The translations under genes were made by a program, and so were the position numbers. Positions 1,610-51,496 of a DNA stretch of 64,000 nt are shown here, one piece after another. Under the pieces are notes generated by a model, which was not told where the DNA came from, made no database searches, and saw only the letters and a program-made list of their open reading frames with translations. The DNA lies in the sequence record PZ386976.1. The stretch is one strand, 5' to 3'. This DNA comes from a phage. Within the stretch, counting starts at the first letter, position 1; every line of letters starts with the position of its first letter.

Positions 1610-3085
1610 GTGAGAAGAATGGCAGATATTACAGAAACACAAGAAAGCTTACCACCATTTAGAATGGGTGAAGTAGGTTCTTTGGGTCTGAAGGTTAAGA
1701 ATGGAAGAATCTATGAAGAACCTCGTCAGGCACTAAGGTTCCCTGAAAGTATTAAAACTTTCCAATTAATGATGCGTGACCCTGCTGTAGCAGCATCTGT
1801 AAATATTATTAAGATGTTTGTCAGAAAAGTCAACTGGAGATTTGTACCTCCAAAGGGAAAAGAGCAAGACCCTAAAATGCTTGAAAGAGCAGACTTCTTT
1901 AATTCTTTAATGGATGACATGGAGCATGATTGGGCAGATTTTATTAATTCTGTAATGTCATTCTGCACTTATGGGTTCTGTGTTAATGAGAAAGTTTATA
2001 AGAAGCGACAGGGTAAAAAAGGAAAGTACCAGTCAAAATTTGATGATGGTCTAATTGGATGGGCTAAATTACCAATCAGAAACCAATCAACACTTGATAA
2101 GTGGTATTTTGACGAAGACTTTAGAAAAGTTACTGGTGTTAGACAGAATCTGAGAAATGTTTCACATATTGCTGGAGCAATTAATCTTGGAGAAAGACCA
2201 CTAACAAGAAAACTTCCACGAGCTAAATTCATGCTGTTTAAGTATGACGATGAATATGGAAACCCAGAAGGTCGTTCACCATTACTTAATGCCTATGTAC
2301 CGTGGAAGTATAAAGTTCAGATTGAAGAGTACGAAGCTGTTGGTGTTTCAAGAGACTTGGTAGGTATGCCAAAAATTGGTTTACCACCAGATTATCTGGA
2401 TGAAAATGCAGAACCTGAAAAGAAAGCTTTCGTACAATACTGCAAAACTGTTGTTAACGATATGATTGCTAATGATAGAGCAGGTTTAATCTGGCCTAGA
2501 TATATCGACCCAGATACTAAAGAGGATATTTTCGAGTTCTCATTAGTTTCTAGACAGGGTGCTAAAGCATACGATACAGGTTCTATTATTGACAGATATT
2601 CCAAGCAGATTATGATGGCATTTATGTCAGATGTTCTTGCTATGGGTCAGTCAAAATACGGTTCATTCTCTCTTGCAGATTCTAAGACAAGCTTATTAGC
2701 GATGTCAGTAGATATTCTGCTGAAGCAAATTAAGAACGTAATTAACCGTGACTTAGTTGCACAGACTTATGCTCTTAATATGTGGGACGATGAAGAACAT
2801 GTACAAATTACATATGATGATATCGAAACTCCAGACCTTGAAGCAATTGGTTCTTATATCCAGAAGACTGTTGCAGTAGGTGCTTTGGAAGTTGACAAAG
2901 AGCTATCTAACAAGCTTAGAGAGCATATTGGTCTTCCTCCTGCTGATGAGTCTCAGCCAGTATCTGAAAAGCTTTCTCCAAATAGCCAAAGCCGTTCAGG
3001 AGATGGTTATAAGACCGCTGGAGAAGGTACTGCAAAGACACCTTCAGCGAAAGACCCAAGCACAGCAAATAAGGCAAATAAATAA
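1610..3085 (+). CDS. portal protein (putative)
   Basis: 491 aa ORF immediately after terminase, before protease/scaffold and capsid genes; position-based. Confidence 0.5.
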   Translation: MRRMADITETQESLPPFRMGEVGSLGLKVKNGRIYEEPRQALRFPESIKTFQLMMRDPAVAASVNIIKMFVRKVNWRFVPPKGKEQDPKMLERADFFNSLMDDMEHDWADFINSVMSFCTYGFCVNEKVYKKRQGKKGKYQSKFDDGLIGWAKLPIRNQSTLDKWYFDEDFRKVTGVRQNLRNVSHIAGAINLGERPLTRKLPRAKFMLFKYDDEYGNPEGRSPLLNAYVPWKYKVQIEEYEAVGVSRDLVGMPKIGLPPDYLDENAEPEKKAFVQYCKTVVNDMIANDRAGLIWPRYIDPDTKEDIFEFSLVSRQGAKAYDTGSIIDRYSKQIMMAFMSDVLAMGQSKYGSFSLADSKTSLLAMSVDILLKQIKNVINRDLVAQTYALNMWDDEEHVQITYDDIETPDLEAIGSYIQKTVAVGALEVDKELSNKLREHIGLPPADESQPVSEKLSPNSQSRSGDGYKTAGEGTAKTPSAKDPSTANKANK

Positions 3086-3585
3086 TGGCTGAAGTTATCT
3101 CTATTTCAAATGCTACACGAGTGCATTCGTATAGAGGTGTTCTTATTATCACTGACAAATTATCTGTAGAGGCTGGCTCAAGGGTCAGCCTTTCAGGTTA
3201 TGTAAGTGATGGTGAAACCTCTGACGTTTTCACTATTTGCAGGTTACTTGATGCACCAATGAGTGGAAAACCGTTTATTTCAGGAAATTGTAGTGAAATT
3301 GTTAAAATTCCATTTGACAGTTCATGCCTTTTGGGTGTAAAGTTATATAACTGCGAGAATAAACGTGTCAATGTTAATAGCATTGAAGCCGCTTTCATTA
3401 CCCTCGATACTGCATTTCAATCCCCAATGACAGTTAACAAAGAAACAAACAGACTTGAATACATTTTTTCACAAAATGATTACAAAGTACTTGTCAAAGG
3501 TAAAGTATATGATATGATTGTAAATGTGGTAGATGAATCTGGTAACCATTCAACAGTCCTTAAACAAAAAGTAAGGTTTAATTAA
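3085..3585 (+). CDS. hypothetical protein (head module)
   Basis: 166 aa ORF start-overlapping portal stop; no motif recognised. Confidence 0.3.
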   Translation: MAEVISISNATRVHSYRGVLIITDKLSVEAGSRVSLSGYVSDGETSDVFTICRLLDAPMSGKPFISGNCSEIVKIPFDSSCLLGVKLYNCENKRVNVNSIEAAFITLDTAFQSPMTVNKETNRLEYIFSQNDYKVLVKGKVYDMIVNVVDESGNHSTVLKQKVRFN

Positions 3586-3917
3586 TGGGAACATTAACTA
3601 TTGATGGTAAGAATAAAATCCTCGCCACGCTAACCCCAACGACTATTATTTTACACAATGTAGACCCAACGGCAGACCCTACAGCAAATAAGGTTACTCA
3701 GCCAGTGGCTATTTATTTTTCTGAACCGGATAATGGCTTAATTGCCTCAGAAGACACAGTTAATATTACTGTTCCAGCTTCTGCAACGGTCTCACACTAT
3801 AGCTTGTGGGATGCTAACGATAAATGCGTGGCAACTGGTGCTCTTAGCAAACCTCAATTCTTTGCTGAAGAAGGTATCTATGTTATCTCTTCAGTCTCTG
3901 TAGATTTAAACAAATAG
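3585..3917 (+). CDS. hypothetical protein (head module)
   Basis: 110 aa ORF, translationally coupled (ATG overlaps upstream stop). Confidence 0.3.
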   Translation: MGTLTIDGKNKILATLTPTTIILHNVDPTADPTANKVTQPVAIYFSEPDNGLIASEDTVNITVPASATVSHYSLWDANDKCVATGALSKPQFFAEEGIYVISSVSVDLNK

Positions 3918-31387: not shown

Positions 31388-31944
31388 TCAGTGTACTTCA
31401 AGCCAATTCTTACCAACTTTACCAGTACCAGTTACAAGCGTTTCCTCCTTAAGCCCTAAGTTTCTTGATGCCTGACCATACATCCAGTCAATCACTGCTT
31501 TAACATCCTGTGTCATCTCTTCTGGGCACTCCCAACTATTCTCATCGTGGTATGCTAAAAGCAATCTAGCACCAATAGCTGGTTTTCGACCATTCAGCTT
31601 TGTAAGACCCTCTTCACAAGTCCTTCTACAAGCAAGGTTGATGGCTTCATTCTGAACCTGACTTTCCGAACCCATGAGCAAGTAATTTAAAAGTTTGTGC
31701 GGAGATTTACACCACAACCATGCACCTGCTACCTTTACAAAACCACCCTTAGATATTGCAGCAGTCTTACCAAACACCTCTTCAAGAGCCTTCTTAGTGG
31801 CTTTGAAGTCTGCTTCTAAATTATCTATCAACTTCTTAATTTTAGGGAGGCGTACAAAGTATGTTTGCTTAGTTAAAGCACCTTCCTCAGTTGTAGATGC
31901 TTTAATCGTCTTAGCAAATTTCTCATCGCCAGCCCCGAACAATA
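31388..31944 (-). CDS. DNA polymerase (family A) exon 2, C-terminal part
   Basis: starts with end of motif B (FGAGDEKFAK), contains motif C (LLLAYHDENSWE) and Pol I-like C-terminus (GKNWLEVH); boundary inferred, +/-10 nt. Confidence 0.7.
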
Positions 31945-32749
31945 CATCTGGTCAATACACTCGCAAGGTGTACCAGTTCTCTTATGAACTTCTCCGCATT
32001 TCTACGGAGTGTCGGACTATATCACGTAGTAGTAGTAATACTACCGTTGCACTTGGGAATGGTCATTAGCTTACCACCCTACTCTACTCAGTTCATACGT
32101 TAAGTATGCTTTTCGATAGTCTCTGAACGTTTCTCTGTTAGGAATCTCTATAGTTATGTTATTTGCTTAGGTAGTCAATTGCCCTTTGCATATTATCAAT
32201 GCTATCTGCAAGTAACCCCAAAGCTCTATTGCAATTGTGGCACAACATGCCTCTTACTTTTCCGGTTTTGTGGTCATGGTCAACGACAAGTTTAGCCTTA
32301 TGCCGTGAACTATTCATGATAAAACCTTCACCGCCACAAATTTGACATTTGTAATCACAGTTACGAAGTAGGGTCTCAACCTCTTCTCTTTCTAAACCAT
32401 ATGTTCTCAGGTAGTAATTCTTAACTCTACCTTTCTCTCCACAATGCGAAGAACAATAAACTTGCCTTGCTGTTCTAGGCATGAACACCTTCTCACAGCT
32501 AGGACATTTCTTAGTAAGAACCCTATATTCTGCTCTTCTGTCAAATTTTAATACGCAACTTCTGCACCGTTTTTGATTGTATTGGTACGGTTTAAACTCC
32601 GTGCCACACTCAGTGCATAATCTCTCTTCGTAACCTGCCATTGTCTCTCTCCTTTGTTTTAGGAGTCCTAACAGAGACTTCGCTGCTGATTACCATATCT
32701 TTACAGACTTAGGCTTCCAGCAATTCACAACGTTTTACATGCGCCACTG
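31945..32749 (-). mobile_element. group I intron in DNA polymerase gene, carrying endonuclease VII-like ORF
   Basis: interrupts pol motif B; minus strand has R-like GTTCAGAGACTA (plus 32115-32128) and S-like GATATAGTCC (plus ~32014-32024); proposed exon 1 ends in U and intron ends in G. Confidence 0.6.
32159..32641 (-). CDS. endonuclease VII-like (His-Me finger) homing endonuclease, intron-encoded
   Basis: C-terminal VVDHDHKTGKVRGMLCHNCN matches T4 endo VII core; N-terminal Cys4 zinc ribbons; inside pol intervening sequence. Confidence 0.7.
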   Translation of the reverse strand: MAGYEERLCTECGTEFKPYQYNQKRCRSCVLKFDRRAEYRVLTKKCPSCEKVFMPRTARQVYCSSHCGEKGRVKNYYLRTYGLEREEVETLLRNCDYKCQICGGEGFIMNSSRHKAKLVVDHDHKTGKVRGMLCHNCNRALGLLADSIDNMQRAIDYLSK

Positions 32750-48520: not shown

Positions 48521-48542
48521 GGGTCTCTTCGGAGACCTTTTT
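48521..48542 (+). terminator. rho-independent terminator
   Basis: ggtctc-ttcg-gagacc then TTTTT. Confidence 0.6.
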
Positions 48543-48561: not shown

Positions 48562-49758
48562 ATGAACAAAGTACAGATTATTAAAAAGAATGGCTCACTC
48601 GAAGAACCTGATATCAAAAAAGTTTTAGCAGCAGTCACAAAGTCAGCTAATAGGGTTGGGTATAAAGAACTCCCACCAGATGTTACTCAAGCTCTTGAGT
48701 CAGCATTTATGAGGATTCTGGTAAAGTCCACTAAGCAGAATAATTTGCTAATTTCTGTAAACGATATTCACAGTATTGTTGAGGGTGCTTTGGCAGAAGT
48801 CAATCACGAAATTTATGAGTCTTACTCAACATACAGAAATTACCGTAAAGAAGTTGCTCAAAATTGGGATGAACTCTACCAGAAGACCAAAGATACACTC
48901 TTCTTAGGTGACAGAGAGAATGCTAACTTTGACAGCAGTTTAATTTCTACAAAAGGCTCAATTATTCGTGGTTACCTGACTAAAGAAATCTTTAAACAGT
49001 ACCATTTAACACCAGAGGAACTTGAAGCCATTGAAAAAGGGTTTATCTATATCCATGATTTAAGAGACCTAATTTTTGGTGGTATCAACTGTTGCCTGTT
49101 TGACATTGGTAAAGTCCTGAAAGGTGGCTTTGAAATGTCTGGCATCGAATATTGTGAACCAAAGTCTGTGCTGTCGGCCTTACAGGTTATTGGTGACGTA
49201 GTTCTTTCAGCAACTGCACAGCAATTTGGTGGCTTTACTTTAGCAGAGATTGATAAGGTACTCGTACCGTATGCTAAGAAGTCTCTACGCTATCATGCTG
49301 AGAAAGCAGCATCTTATGGTATTCCTAAAGAACATTACCACAATTATATCATGGAGCAGCTACAGATTGAACTGACTCAAGGTTTCCAGTCACTTGAAAT
49401 GAAACTCAATACTGTGCCTTGTAGCCGTGGGGATTTTGCATTTACAACTTTGACATTCGGGTTACTTGATTCAGATATGTCTAATGAAGATAACCGACTG
49501 CAATACATGATTGCAAGTACTCTCCTAGATGTTCGTATGAATGGACAAGGTAAGAGCAAGAAGCCTGTTGTATTCCCTAAACTGGTTTATATTTATGACC
49601 AGAAGAGACACGATGAGAATATCTGTCAAGGACACCTGTACAGTAAAGCCATTGAGTGTTGCTCTAAAGCAATGTATCCAGATTTCTTAAGTGTATCTGG
49701 TCATGGTGCTGTAGCAGAGGCTTTTGAGCGTTCTGGTAAGGTTATTTCACCGATGGGT
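48562..49758 (+). CDS. nrdD: anaerobic ribonucleotide reductase NrdD, exon 1
   Basis: N-terminal ATP-cone-like; ends ...GKVISPMG, matching E. coli NrdD ...VISPMG|CRSFL recalled from memory; track ORF runs to stop at 49759-49761 inside intron. Confidence 0.8.
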
Positions 49759-50500
49759 TAACAAGCTCTATAGCTCATCTAAAACGTGCCTAAACAGGGA
49801 AACTCTACAGATGTAGACAATCCTGTGCTAAATGATGTACGATGTAAGAAACTATACAACATAGGAGTCTTACATGCCAAACTATCACGTCACTGAAGAT
49901 GGAAAAGTCTTTAGGGAAAATGGTGTAGAGCTTACGCAGTGGAAATCCAACACTGGGTATATGAAAGTGAGGTTTTACGGTAAGAAGAATCGTGACATGT
50001 ATGTCCACAGGTTAGTTGCTGAGAAATATGTACCTAACCCGAATAATCTTCCAATTGTAAAACATAAGGACGATAACAAACTAAATAACCACGCATCTAA
50101 CTTAGAATGGGGTACTCATTCTGAGAATGCTAAAGAAGGTTATGAGAACGGTTGCTACAAGTTCCACAAGCGTTCATATGCCGTGAAAGCCACACACAAA
50201 GTGACAAGGGAAGTTATTGTTACTAAGTCAATACGAGAGTTATCCAATATACTTGGACACAATCGCAAGACCATCTCTTCAATATTGAAGGGTGTAAAAG
50301 AGCATAATAACTTCGAATATGAGTTTGAATACATCTAAATGCCGAACGACTAACCGTGATGAATGTAGCGGTGTAGGGTCAAGCGACTCGAAATGGTACG
50401 CTACTTAGAAATAAGTAGAAGATATAGTCTGGACTTACTGGCGACAGTAAGCAGCTTGAATAAAGCGGGGTAAGCTTAGCGAACTTACCTGAACAACAAG
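49759..50500 (+). mobile_element. group I intron in nrdD carrying HNH endonuclease gene
   Basis: exon 1 last nt T (49758); intron last nt G (50500); R-like GTCAAGCGACTCGAAA (~50366-50386) and S-like AAGATATAGTC (50419-50429); joined exons read SPMG-CRAFLSPYLNENGEEFYVGR. Confidence 0.75.
49874..50338 (+). CDS. HNH homing endonuclease (intron-encoded)
   Basis: HNH motif region HKDDNKLNNHASNLEWGTHSEN; lies wholly inside nrdD intron upstream of R/S core. Confidence 0.7.
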   Translation: MPNYHVTEDGKVFRENGVELTQWKSNTGYMKVRFYGKKNRDMYVHRLVAEKYVPNPNNLPIVKHKDDNKLNNHASNLEWGTHSENAKEGYENGCYKFHKRSYAVKATHKVTREVIVTKSIRELSNILGHNRKTISSILKGVKEHNNFEYEFEYI

Positions 50501-51448
50501 TGTAGAGCATTTTTATCACCATATCTTAACGAGAATGGGGAAGAGTTCTATGTAGGTCGTGCTAACATTGGTGCTGTGTCTTTGAACTTACCAATGATTT
50601 ACCAGTATTCTAAAGAGAATGAATTAGATTTCTGGAAAGAGCTTGATAAGTACCTAGAAATGATTCGCAGCTTCCACAAGAAACGTTACGAAATGATTGC
50701 TAATATGCCAGCAAGTTCTAACCCTCTTGCGTTCACACAAGGTGGTCTGTACAAAGGGAATAAGAAACCTACTGACAGGGTTGGCTGGGATATCGTGAAG
50801 TCCTTCACAGCTTCTTTTGGGGTTACTGCGCTTGATGAGCTATCTGTTCTTGCTGAAGGTAAACGACTTCATGAAGTTGGAAGCTGTAGTTTTGCATACG
50901 ATGTTCTGGAATACATCAACATGAAAACTGAAGAGTTTAAAAATGAAGATGGCTTCTTATATGCCGTCTATGGTACTCCAGCAGAATCACTTTGTGGAAC
51001 TCAGCTAAAACAGTTCAGAGATATGTTTGGCGTTATCAAAGGTGTTTCTGATAAGGAATACTTTACAAACAGCTTCCATATGAATGTTGCAGCAGACATT
51101 ACACCATTTGAGAAGCAGGACTTAGAAGAACCCTTCTTCCATATCTGTAGAGGCGGTAGAATCCAGTATGTAAGAGTGGCTAATCCAGAAAACTTATCAG
51201 CACTTAAGAGTTGTATTACGAGAGGTATGTTGAAAGGTTTCTATCAGGGACTGAACTTTGACTTAGCAATCTGTGAACATTGCGGTAACAGACCAAAGGC
51301 TGATGTTGAAGAATGTGAGGTTTGTCATTCACATGATATCTCTGTGATTAACAGGGTGTGCGGGTATCTCGGGTGGACTAAGATTAAAGGCGAATCCCGA
51401 ATGAATGATGCAAAAATCGCTGAGATTCGTGACAGAGTTTCTATGTAA
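50501..51448 (+). CDS. nrdD: anaerobic ribonucleotide reductase NrdD, exon 2
   Basis: in-frame continuation CRAFLSPYLNENGEEFYVGRANIGAVSLNLP; C-terminal zinc site and glycyl-radical motif RVCGYLG. Confidence 0.8.
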   Translation, partial: CRAFLSPYLNENGEEFYVGRANIGAVSLNLPMIYQYSKENELDFWKELDKYLEMIRSFHKKRYEMIANMPASSNPLAFTQGGLYKGNKKPTDRVGWDIVKSFTASFGVTALDELSVLAEGKRLHEVGSCSFAYDVLEYINMKTEEFKNEDGFLYAVYGTPAESLCGTQLKQFRDMFGVIKGVSDKEYFTNSFHMNVAADITPFEKQDLEEPFFHICRGGRIQYVRVANPENLSALKSCITRGMLKGFYQGLNFDLAICEHCGNRPKADVEECEVCHSHDISVINRVCGYLGWTKIKGESRMNDAKIAEIRDRVSM

Positions 51449-51458
51449 AACTTGACAA

Positions 51459-51496
51459 GGTGATGTGAGTCTTGATAGGCTTACATCACCTTTTTT
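51459..51496 (+). terminator. rho-independent terminator after nrdD
   Basis: ggtgatgtgag ...loop... cttacatcacc then TTTTTT. Confidence 0.5.

Follow-up and report, generated by a model that had tools for sequence, protein, structure and literature searches.

A td/nrdD-Family Group I Intron with an HNH Endonuclease Gene in the Split nrdD Gene of a Felix O1-Like Phage

In the phage DNA of sequence record PZ386976.1, the gene nrdD is found in two parts with an HNH endonuclease gene in between. The question that this locus raises is what the insert is: an intron that is removed from the RNA, an intron that has decayed, an in-frame insertion at the protein level, or a free-standing gene that has truly cut nrdD in two. 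The window, i.e., the whole stretch of 64,000 nucleotides (nt) that was analyzed, belongs to a Felix O1-like myovirus of the genus Felixounavirus. Over its full length, segment 48562-51448, which contains nrdD, shares 95-97% identity with many Felix O1-like phages, with the Salmonella phages FSL SP-010 and SP-012 as best matches (97.0%). A preliminary description, made without database searches, had taken the insert for a group I intron and had placed its HNH homing endonuclease gene in a peripheral loop, and the present analysis arrives at the same interpretation. With high confidence, the insert is a mobile group I intron of the td/nrdD family in Felixounavirus nrdD, with an I-HmuI-like HNH gene in P6a. 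This reading is carried by the anatomy of the insert, its homology to known introns, covariation, its exact junction, and its polymorphism among relatives. As the same insert is present in dozens of independent genomes, it is not a chance pattern.

The nrdD Gene and Its Product

The gene and its two exons are positioned as follows.

48562-51448, plus strand: nrdD, whole split gene, interrupted by a 742-nt insert at 49759-50500
48562..49758, plus strand: nrdD exon 1, 399 codons, with the ATP-cone and the N-terminal half of the NrdD barrel; ends in ...ISPMG (open reading frame list and Pfam)
50501..51448, plus strand: nrdD exon 2, 315 codons and a stop; the first codon is UGU, i.e., Cys400

The first open reading frame (ORF; 48562-49761) closes with ...GKVISPMG followed by TAA. 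Translation from 50501 reads CRAFLSPYLNENGEEFYVGRANIGAVSLNLP... and runs into the glycyl-radical motif RVCGYLG (51353-51373), 25 codons ahead of the nrdD stop. Both ends had been given in the preliminary description and are confirmed by ORF and translation. In Pfam, exon 1 matches the ATP-cone and NRDD positions 1-250, and exon 2 matches NRDD positions 264-560 and Gly_radical. When the exons are joined, a coding sequence (CDS) of 2145 nt is obtained that encodes 714 amino acids (aa), the same length as that of the uninterrupted nrdD of Felix O1 and dune. The joined protein aligns without gaps through the junction to the structure of T4 NrdD (1H78; ...VSPMGCRSFLS, E=3e-76) as well as to a second solved structure, 9D3X (...APMGCRSFLQ). 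The match to PMG|CRSFL, originally stated for E. coli NrdD, is verified on these two structures and not on the E. coli protein itself. Judged by its motifs, the product of the joined exons is a class III ribonucleotide reductase (RNR), NrdD, in which NRDD fold, ATP-cone, finger-loop Cys and glycyl-radical motif are collinear.

The insertion point lies between Gly399 and Cys400. Cys400 is aligned with residue 290 of T4 NrdD, which we take to be C290, the numbering being based on the alignment. The T4 residue aligned with Cys400 is the finger-loop cysteine, the initiator of catalysis. Mobile introns typically sit at the most conserved codons (PMC2988022).

The two parts of nrdD could alternatively be read as a gene truly split by a free-standing homing endonuclease gene, with the halves being translated apart and assembled into an active enzyme. 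Many GenBank records show two NrdD CDSs flanking an HNH gene, and in literature the nrdD of UAB_Phi87 and other Felix O1-like phages is called a split gene with a homing endonuclease gene as the interruption (Bardina et al., 2016; PMC4837284). Endonuclease genes inserted in conserved genes have been reported as well (Moreno Switt et al., 2013; PMC3728262). Moreover, there is a precedent for a functional split RNR in Aeromonas phage Aeh1, where nrdA is split by mobE (cited in PMC3653736). However, a start codon is lacking where exon 2 begins, as is, by inspection, a ribosome-binding site near the junction. The first candidate start codon is a GTG located 25 codons downstream, and a protein starting there would lose the catalytic Cys400. 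Taken with the RNA structure and the ORF-less copies of the insert described below, separately translated halves are extremely unlikely.

Boundaries of the Insert

The last base of exon 1 (49758) is a T and the last base of the insert (50500) is a G, with 742 nt in the insert. The intron-less alleles of Felix O1 and dune read ...CCGATGGGT|TGYAGAGC... at this place, and in the intron-bearing relatives the insert falls exactly between these bases. The junction sequence of both intron-less alleles is GGGT|TGTAGAGC. The placement of the junction at U49758 and G50500, which the preliminary description had claimed to the nucleotide, stands on the basis of these alleles and of the P1/P10 pairing described below.

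The insert starts with UAA (49759-61), directly after codon 399, which is an in-frame stop for unspliced RNA. This bears on the possibility that the insert is an intein or another in-frame insertion at the protein level. In RNR genes, catalytic sites are frequent places of intein insertion (PMC3653736). In this case, however, the TAA at 49759-61 closes the frame. The HNH ORF is situated in another frame, has a ribosome-binding site of its own, and is set apart from either exon by structured non-coding RNA. An intein is thereby refuted by the sequence.

Structure of the Ribozyme

The insert can be folded into a full P1-P10 structure, of which the elements are listed below.

49759..50500, plus strand: group I intron of the td/nrdD family, IA2-type architecture, no P2, 742 nt
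49752..49779, plus strand: P1/P10 region, pairing checked by script
49752-58 / 49773-79, plus strand: P1, GAUGGGU/GCUCAUC, with the wobble U49758·G49773
49765-72 / 50501-08, plus strand: P10, 8 base pairs (bp), GCUCUAUA/UGUAGAGC, contiguous with P1 on the guide sequence
49785..49839, plus strand: 5′ half of the catalytic core, with the P3 5′ strand, P4, P5, and the P6 and P6a 5′ strands (Rfam alignment)
49785-90 / 50395-400, plus strand: P3
49794-98 / 49822-26, plus strand: P4
49804-08 / 49813-17, plus strand: P5
49827-28 / 50341-42, plus strand: P6
49834-39 / 50330-35, plus strand: P6a
50330..50400, plus strand: 3′ core segment, from the P6a 3′ strand to the P3 3′ strand, containing the true R element
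50341-50353, plus strand: R element, J6/7 and the P7 5′ strand, GCCGAACGACTAA / GCCGAACGACUAA; GCCGAACGACUA at 50341-52
50348-52 / 50425-29, plus strand: P7, GACUA/UAGUC, identical to td
50353-57 / 50368-72, plus strand: P7.1
50376-80 / 50385-89, plus strand: P7.2
50401..50500, plus strand: 3′ end segment, from P8 to the terminal G at 50500, containing the S element
50401-07 / 50412-18, plus strand: P8, with a GAAA loop
50419-50429, plus strand: S element, J8/7 and the P7 3′ strand, AAGATATAGTC
50434-40 / 50445-51, plus strand: P9, with a GCGA loop
50454-57 / 50463-66, plus strand: P9.1
50469-74 / 50484-89, plus strand: P9.2

All 14 helices occur in canonical order and with standard pairs only, both in the window copy and in three homologs at the same site, those of A141, PD06 and F101, which are introduced below. 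The td intron of T4 has the same helix set with standard pairs, P10 not being assigned there. The presence of P7.1 and P7.2 between P7 and the 3′ strand of P3, plus the P9.1/P9.2 extension, gives the intron an IA2-type architecture. In the Michel-Westhof classification, the P7.1/P7.2 insertion marks subgroup IA2, as in the T4 introns. Regarding the conserved elements of the core, the preliminary description was half right. The S-like element is correct, and its alignment to the J8/7-P7 segment of Rfam RF00028 has a high posterior probability. The sequence proposed as R-like, GTCAAGCGACTCGAAA at 50378-50393, was rejected as R element, as it corresponds to the P7.2 hairpin and J7.2/3; the true R equivalent lies at 50341-50353.

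At the gathering thresholds, an Rfam scan of the whole window gave no match, a result that was not counted against an intron, as the model is split by the ORF. A local scan with RF00028, of which the gathering score is 50 bits, assigns 33.1 bits (E=1.6e-6) to the window copy, with the model interrupted at the ORF, and an additional 15.6 bits to a P4-P6 fragment. This score is low because the 465-nt ORF in P6a splits the RF00028 model: the ORF-less sister copies of EC6, D1-2 and RPN213 reach 53.6, 55.7 and 60.4 bits, respectively, and all pass the gathering score.

The structure is additionally supported by covariation. In a MAFFT alignment of eight introns covering P3, P4, P5, P6, P7 and P9, 97.1% of the cells are paired, compared to 29-41% when the partners are slid. 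Compensatory changes occur in 16 of the 30 pairs, and none of 500 shuffles reaches the observed values. P10 covaries too, as exon 2 differs in Vibrio phage F101 (UGCCGAUC) and the guide has changed along with it (GAUUGGCA). An unconstrained minimum free energy (MFE) fold of the ORF-less EC6 intron (z=-3.9) recovers P10, P3, P4, P5, P6, P6a, P7.1, P7.2, P8, P9, P9.1 and P9.2. It misses P1 and P7, the latter being a pseudoknot that is beyond MFE representation. A complete, covarying group I structure of which the guide pairs with both exon ends argues against the split-gene alternative.

The insert might also be a decayed intron that no longer splices, leaving nrdD as a pseudogene, with the aerobic NrdAB encoded upstream being sufficient for the phage. 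This would agree with the score of the window copy below the Rfam threshold, with the fact that about half of the related phages have no intron, and with the class I RNR subunits (NrdAB) that are encoded upstream of nrdD in the same phage. However, every core helix is intact and made of standard pairs, and P7 and J8/7 have the same sequences as in td, a proven ribozyme. Both exons have also kept open frames and all NrdD motifs, and the low score is accounted for by the ORF. Decay of the intron is therefore very unlikely.

Several points nevertheless weigh against a spliced group I intron. Firstly, both the intron and exon 2 start with U, and the allele comparison alone allows either 49758/50500 or 49759/50501 as boundary. 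Both options yield an identical mRNA. The second one was rejected, since the intron would then end in U and the U·G rule would be broken. The boundary 49758/50500 was chosen because only there a U·G pair at the 5′ splice site is combined with a terminal G, following the group I rules. Secondly, the window copy itself remains under the Rfam gathering score (33.1 vs. 50). Thirdly, the intron has no P2 helix, unlike td. Fourthly, the covariation alignment has its P6a loops swapped for GAAA, and P6a, P7.1, P7.2 and P8, which were misaligned by MAFFT, were omitted from it and checked sequence by sequence only. Lastly, we infer splicing as well as the activity and the target of the endonuclease.

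The Endonuclease Gene

Two features are located in the loop of P6a or next to it.

49874..50338, plus strand: ORF for an HNH homing endonuclease of the I-HmuI/I-BasI type, 154 aa, in the P6a loop
49842..49875, plus strand: predicted stem-loop around the ribosome-binding site of the endonuclease and the first two bases of its AUG

The peripheral position of the gene, as first described, is confirmed, and its last two codons and stop overlap the 3′ strand of P6a and the internal loop of P6. The ORF matches Pfam HNH_3 (PF13392) with 41.2 bits (cutoff 24.8). It also matches I-HmuI (1U3E) over nearly its full length (ORF residues 3-152 vs. 12-169, E=4.7e-9). On this sequence evidence, its product is a putative homing endonuclease of the I-HmuI type. 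The family is found in 2131 phage records, some of them annotated I-HmuI or I-BasI. I-HmuI itself is encoded in the DNA polymerase intron of Bacillus phage SPO1 and is a nicking enzyme. The HNH motif and the C-terminal region are shared between both proteins, but identity is low, and host intron and target gene are different.

A ribosome-binding site, AGGAG (49863-67), lies 6 nt before the AUG of the ORF. The stem-loop predicted around it has an 8-bp outer and a 4-bp inner stem (-9.8 kcal/mol, z=-2.66) and is also present in the MFE fold of an ORF-less sibling. Intron endonucleases of T4 are known for translational restraint (PMC2988022). By analogy, the stem-loop resembles such T4-type restraint and could have a regulatory role. 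A promoter scan found sigma-70-like sites not above chance (7 vs. 8.6 expected), and no endonuclease promoter is claimed.

Proposed Splicing and Homing

Splicing would start from the guide GCUCUAUA-GCUCAUC in the pre-mRNA. Pairing of the guide with the end of exon 1 would form P1, closing in the U49758·G wobble. Pairing of the same guide sequence with the start of exon 2 would form P10, bringing both exons side by side. The core (P3-P8, with a guanosine-binding P7 identical to td) would then catalyze two transesterifications, by which the intron is cut out behind G50500 and the codons GGU (Gly399) and UGU (Cys400) become neighbors, giving the 714-aa NrdD. On unspliced RNA, translation would stop at the UAA that opens the intron. 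Homing would depend on the endonuclease gene in the P6a loop, of which the ribosome-binding site is partly buried in a stem. By analogy to characterized phage intron endonucleases, the enzyme may cut or nick the intron-less nrdD of co-infecting relatives near GGGT|TGTAGAGC. Subsequent repair from the intron-bearing allele would insert a copy of the intron, i.e., homing.

Distribution among Related Phages

Among the Felixounavirus-type nrdD genes, different states are found. The record counts are approximate, as they include GenBank/RefSeq duplicates.

Felixounavirus-type nrdD, all records: approximately 220-230
Intron with endonuclease gene: approximately 61 records
Intron 3′ core at ≥90% identity, ORF present or absent: approximately 115 records
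ORF-less intron: approximately 54 records, by difference
Intron-less nrdD: the remaining records, Felix O1 included

Felix O1 has indeed been reported to be intron-free in these genes (PMC3185647). The ORF has been lost in different ways. EC6 (L002 501-816) and D1-2 (L006 501-816) have a 316-nt intron with an in-frame deletion of 426 nt in the ORF, leaving a mini-ORF of 12 codons. RPN213 (L003 501-792) has a 292-nt intron that results from a separate 450-nt deletion, which has also taken the ribosome-binding site and the start codon. P6a is preserved by both deletions. At 292-316 nt, these ORF-less copies still begin and end at the same places, a pattern that would be left unexplained if the insert were a free-standing endonuclease gene.

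The intron of the window is 99.7% identical to that of FSL SP-010, compared to 97.0% for the whole gene, and is thus more conserved than the exons. When four intron-bearing alleles are compared with two intron-less ones (L004/L005), i.e., six genomes only, synonymous differences are seen at -10 (A vs. C), +9 (A/G vs. T/C) and +12 (T vs. C), corresponding to window positions 49748, 50509 and 50512. These shared flanking differences may represent a co-conversion tract. The allele states, the conservation of the intron and the flanking sites fit homing with co-conversion, followed by decay of the endonuclease gene.

Three public records have a doubtful origin. MG065664, MG065668 and MG065672 are labeled as Campylobacter phages A132, A126 and A141, respectively. 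MG065664 and MG065668 match Felixounavirus nrdD; MG065672 is marked UNVERIFIED and is classified in GenBank as Vequintavirus. This suggests mislabeled or mixed samples.

Introns of the same family are present at the identical Gly|Cys site (PMG|CR), between the codons GGU and UGY, in three other phage groups.

L012 1904-2665: 'Campylobacter phage A141' (Vequintavirus record), Gly|Cys site, with a homologous HNH ORF in P6a
L015 2378-2667: Justusliebigvirus PD06, Gly|Cys site, 290 nt, ORF-less, 70.4 bits in Rfam
L009 approximately 2370-3188: Vibrio phage F101, Gly|Cys site, with an HNH ORF in P6a that is 40% identical

Their cores are 69-78% identical to that of the window intron. They differ from it in belonging to other phage lineages and in their diverged P6a, P8 and P9.x, and PD06 has no ORF. 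The HNH ORF of A141 runs through P6 into P7 before its stop. The nrdD of F101 carries one more intron upstream, unlike the window nrdD. The F101 gene (L009 32-4166) is annotated in four pieces, with two HNH-containing inserts and a break at 3785/3786, which looks like a frameshift or an annotation split.

The same ribozyme family is also seen in other genes of unrelated phages. In Aeromonas phage 2L372X, it is located in the terminase large-subunit gene (L014 2416-2796; 85.3 bits in Rfam). In Vibrio phage S4-7, it occurs twice in the DNA polymerase gene (L013 approximately 2384-2640 and 3037-3271; 69.0 and 58.5 bits).

Relation to Known Introns

The self-splicing td intron of T4 (group IA2) is 72.5% identical to the window intron over the whole core and about 74% over the 3′ core, with identical P7, J8/7 and P7.2 sequences. 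Both introns share the P7.1/P7.2 and P9.1/P9.2 layout and have their endonuclease ORF in the P6 loop. The td intron likewise opens with an in-frame UAA after ...GGGU. It differs in its host gene, which encodes thymidylate synthase, in having P2, and in encoding the GIY-YIG endonuclease I-TevI instead of an HNH protein.

The T4/U5 nrdD intron (sunY) interrupts the same host gene, and its ribozyme core is 75% identical. A 38-nt stretch of the window intron, spanning P7-P7.1, is even 97% identical to a T4-like phage nrdD intron. However, the T4/U5 site corresponds to residues 280/281 of the window NrdD, within a Tyr codon, whereas the window intron is inserted at 399/400. In addition, the T4 nrdD endonuclease I-TevII is annotated as GIY-YIG and lies downstream of the core, whereas the HNH ORF of the window lies in P6a. 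Identity with the T4 nrdD intron and its I-TevII element was rejected, as both insertion site and endonuclease family differ.

The guide of the T4/U5 nrdD intron, GCUCAU, and the adjoining 5′ segment are those of the same-site introns of PD06 and A141. Generally, introns at the T4 site (AUGAGU|) and at the Gly|Cys site (AUGGGU|) share the guide GCUCAU(G) and an almost identical adjoining 5′ segment, and this guide can pair with both target sites. One scenario would be that the ribozyme moved between the two nrdD sites by guide-directed transposition of the reverse-splicing type and then gained a different endonuclease. The shared guide and the 38-nt stretch are compatible with such a movement between sites and are no proof of it, and the scenario is considered rather unlikely.

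Public databases already contain the element. In GenBank, the nrdD of phage Meda is given as a two-part joined CDS around an HNH gene, and in the BASEL paper intron boundaries were annotated by comparison. Literature searches yielded no paper in which the Felixounavirus insert is explicitly called a group I intron, its structure is drawn or its splicing is tested. The insert is one more copy of a td/nrdD-family intron that has been deposited before, and is of a textbook kind.

Surroundings of nrdD and the Probable Polymerase Intron

The gene order around nrdD, i.e., nrdB, glutaredoxin, a small membrane protein, nrdD and nrdG, is that of the nrd cluster of Felix O1 (PMC3185647). The gene is bracketed by terminator-like hairpins, one at 48522-48537, just upstream of the nrdD ribosome-binding site, and one at 51457-51492, just past the nrdD stop codon, the latter having a stem of 16 bp with a T-run behind it. 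The annotation of phage Meda includes similar terminators.

Besides the nrdD intron, the preliminary description had mentioned an intron in the polymerase gene, so that 20 kb would hold at least two introns whose endonucleases belong to different families. This is supported in outline. The family-A DNA polymerase gene on the minus strand is split into 34922-32709 and 31942-31388, with the following features in between.

Approximately 31943-32708, minus strand: insert in the polymerase gene, about 770-800 nt, limits approximate
32641-32159, minus strand: ORF of 160 aa with an Endonuclease_7 domain, between the polymerase parts

The insert gives partial RF00028 matches of 24.6 and 17.9 bits and has recognizable P4-P6 and GAUAUAGUCC motifs. 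In relatives, it occurs in full, ORF-less and intron-less forms.

Implications

For annotation, the nrdD of this phage is to be given as one CDS, join(48562..49758, 50501..51448), and not as two fragments, which many public Felixounavirus records still carry. The locus adds nothing that is new in kind, nor does it open up any question of long standing. If the movement between the two nrdD sites outlined above were true, it would be a natural case of intron site-switching decoupled from endonuclease homing. For the Felixounavirus group, the different alleles form a clean and unsurprising case of the life cycle of homing endonucleases, comprising the intron with its endonuclease gene, the intron from which this gene has been deleted (by at least two different deletions), and the gene without intron. 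In this life cycle, the intron sits at the most conserved codon of its host gene, that of the catalytic cysteine.

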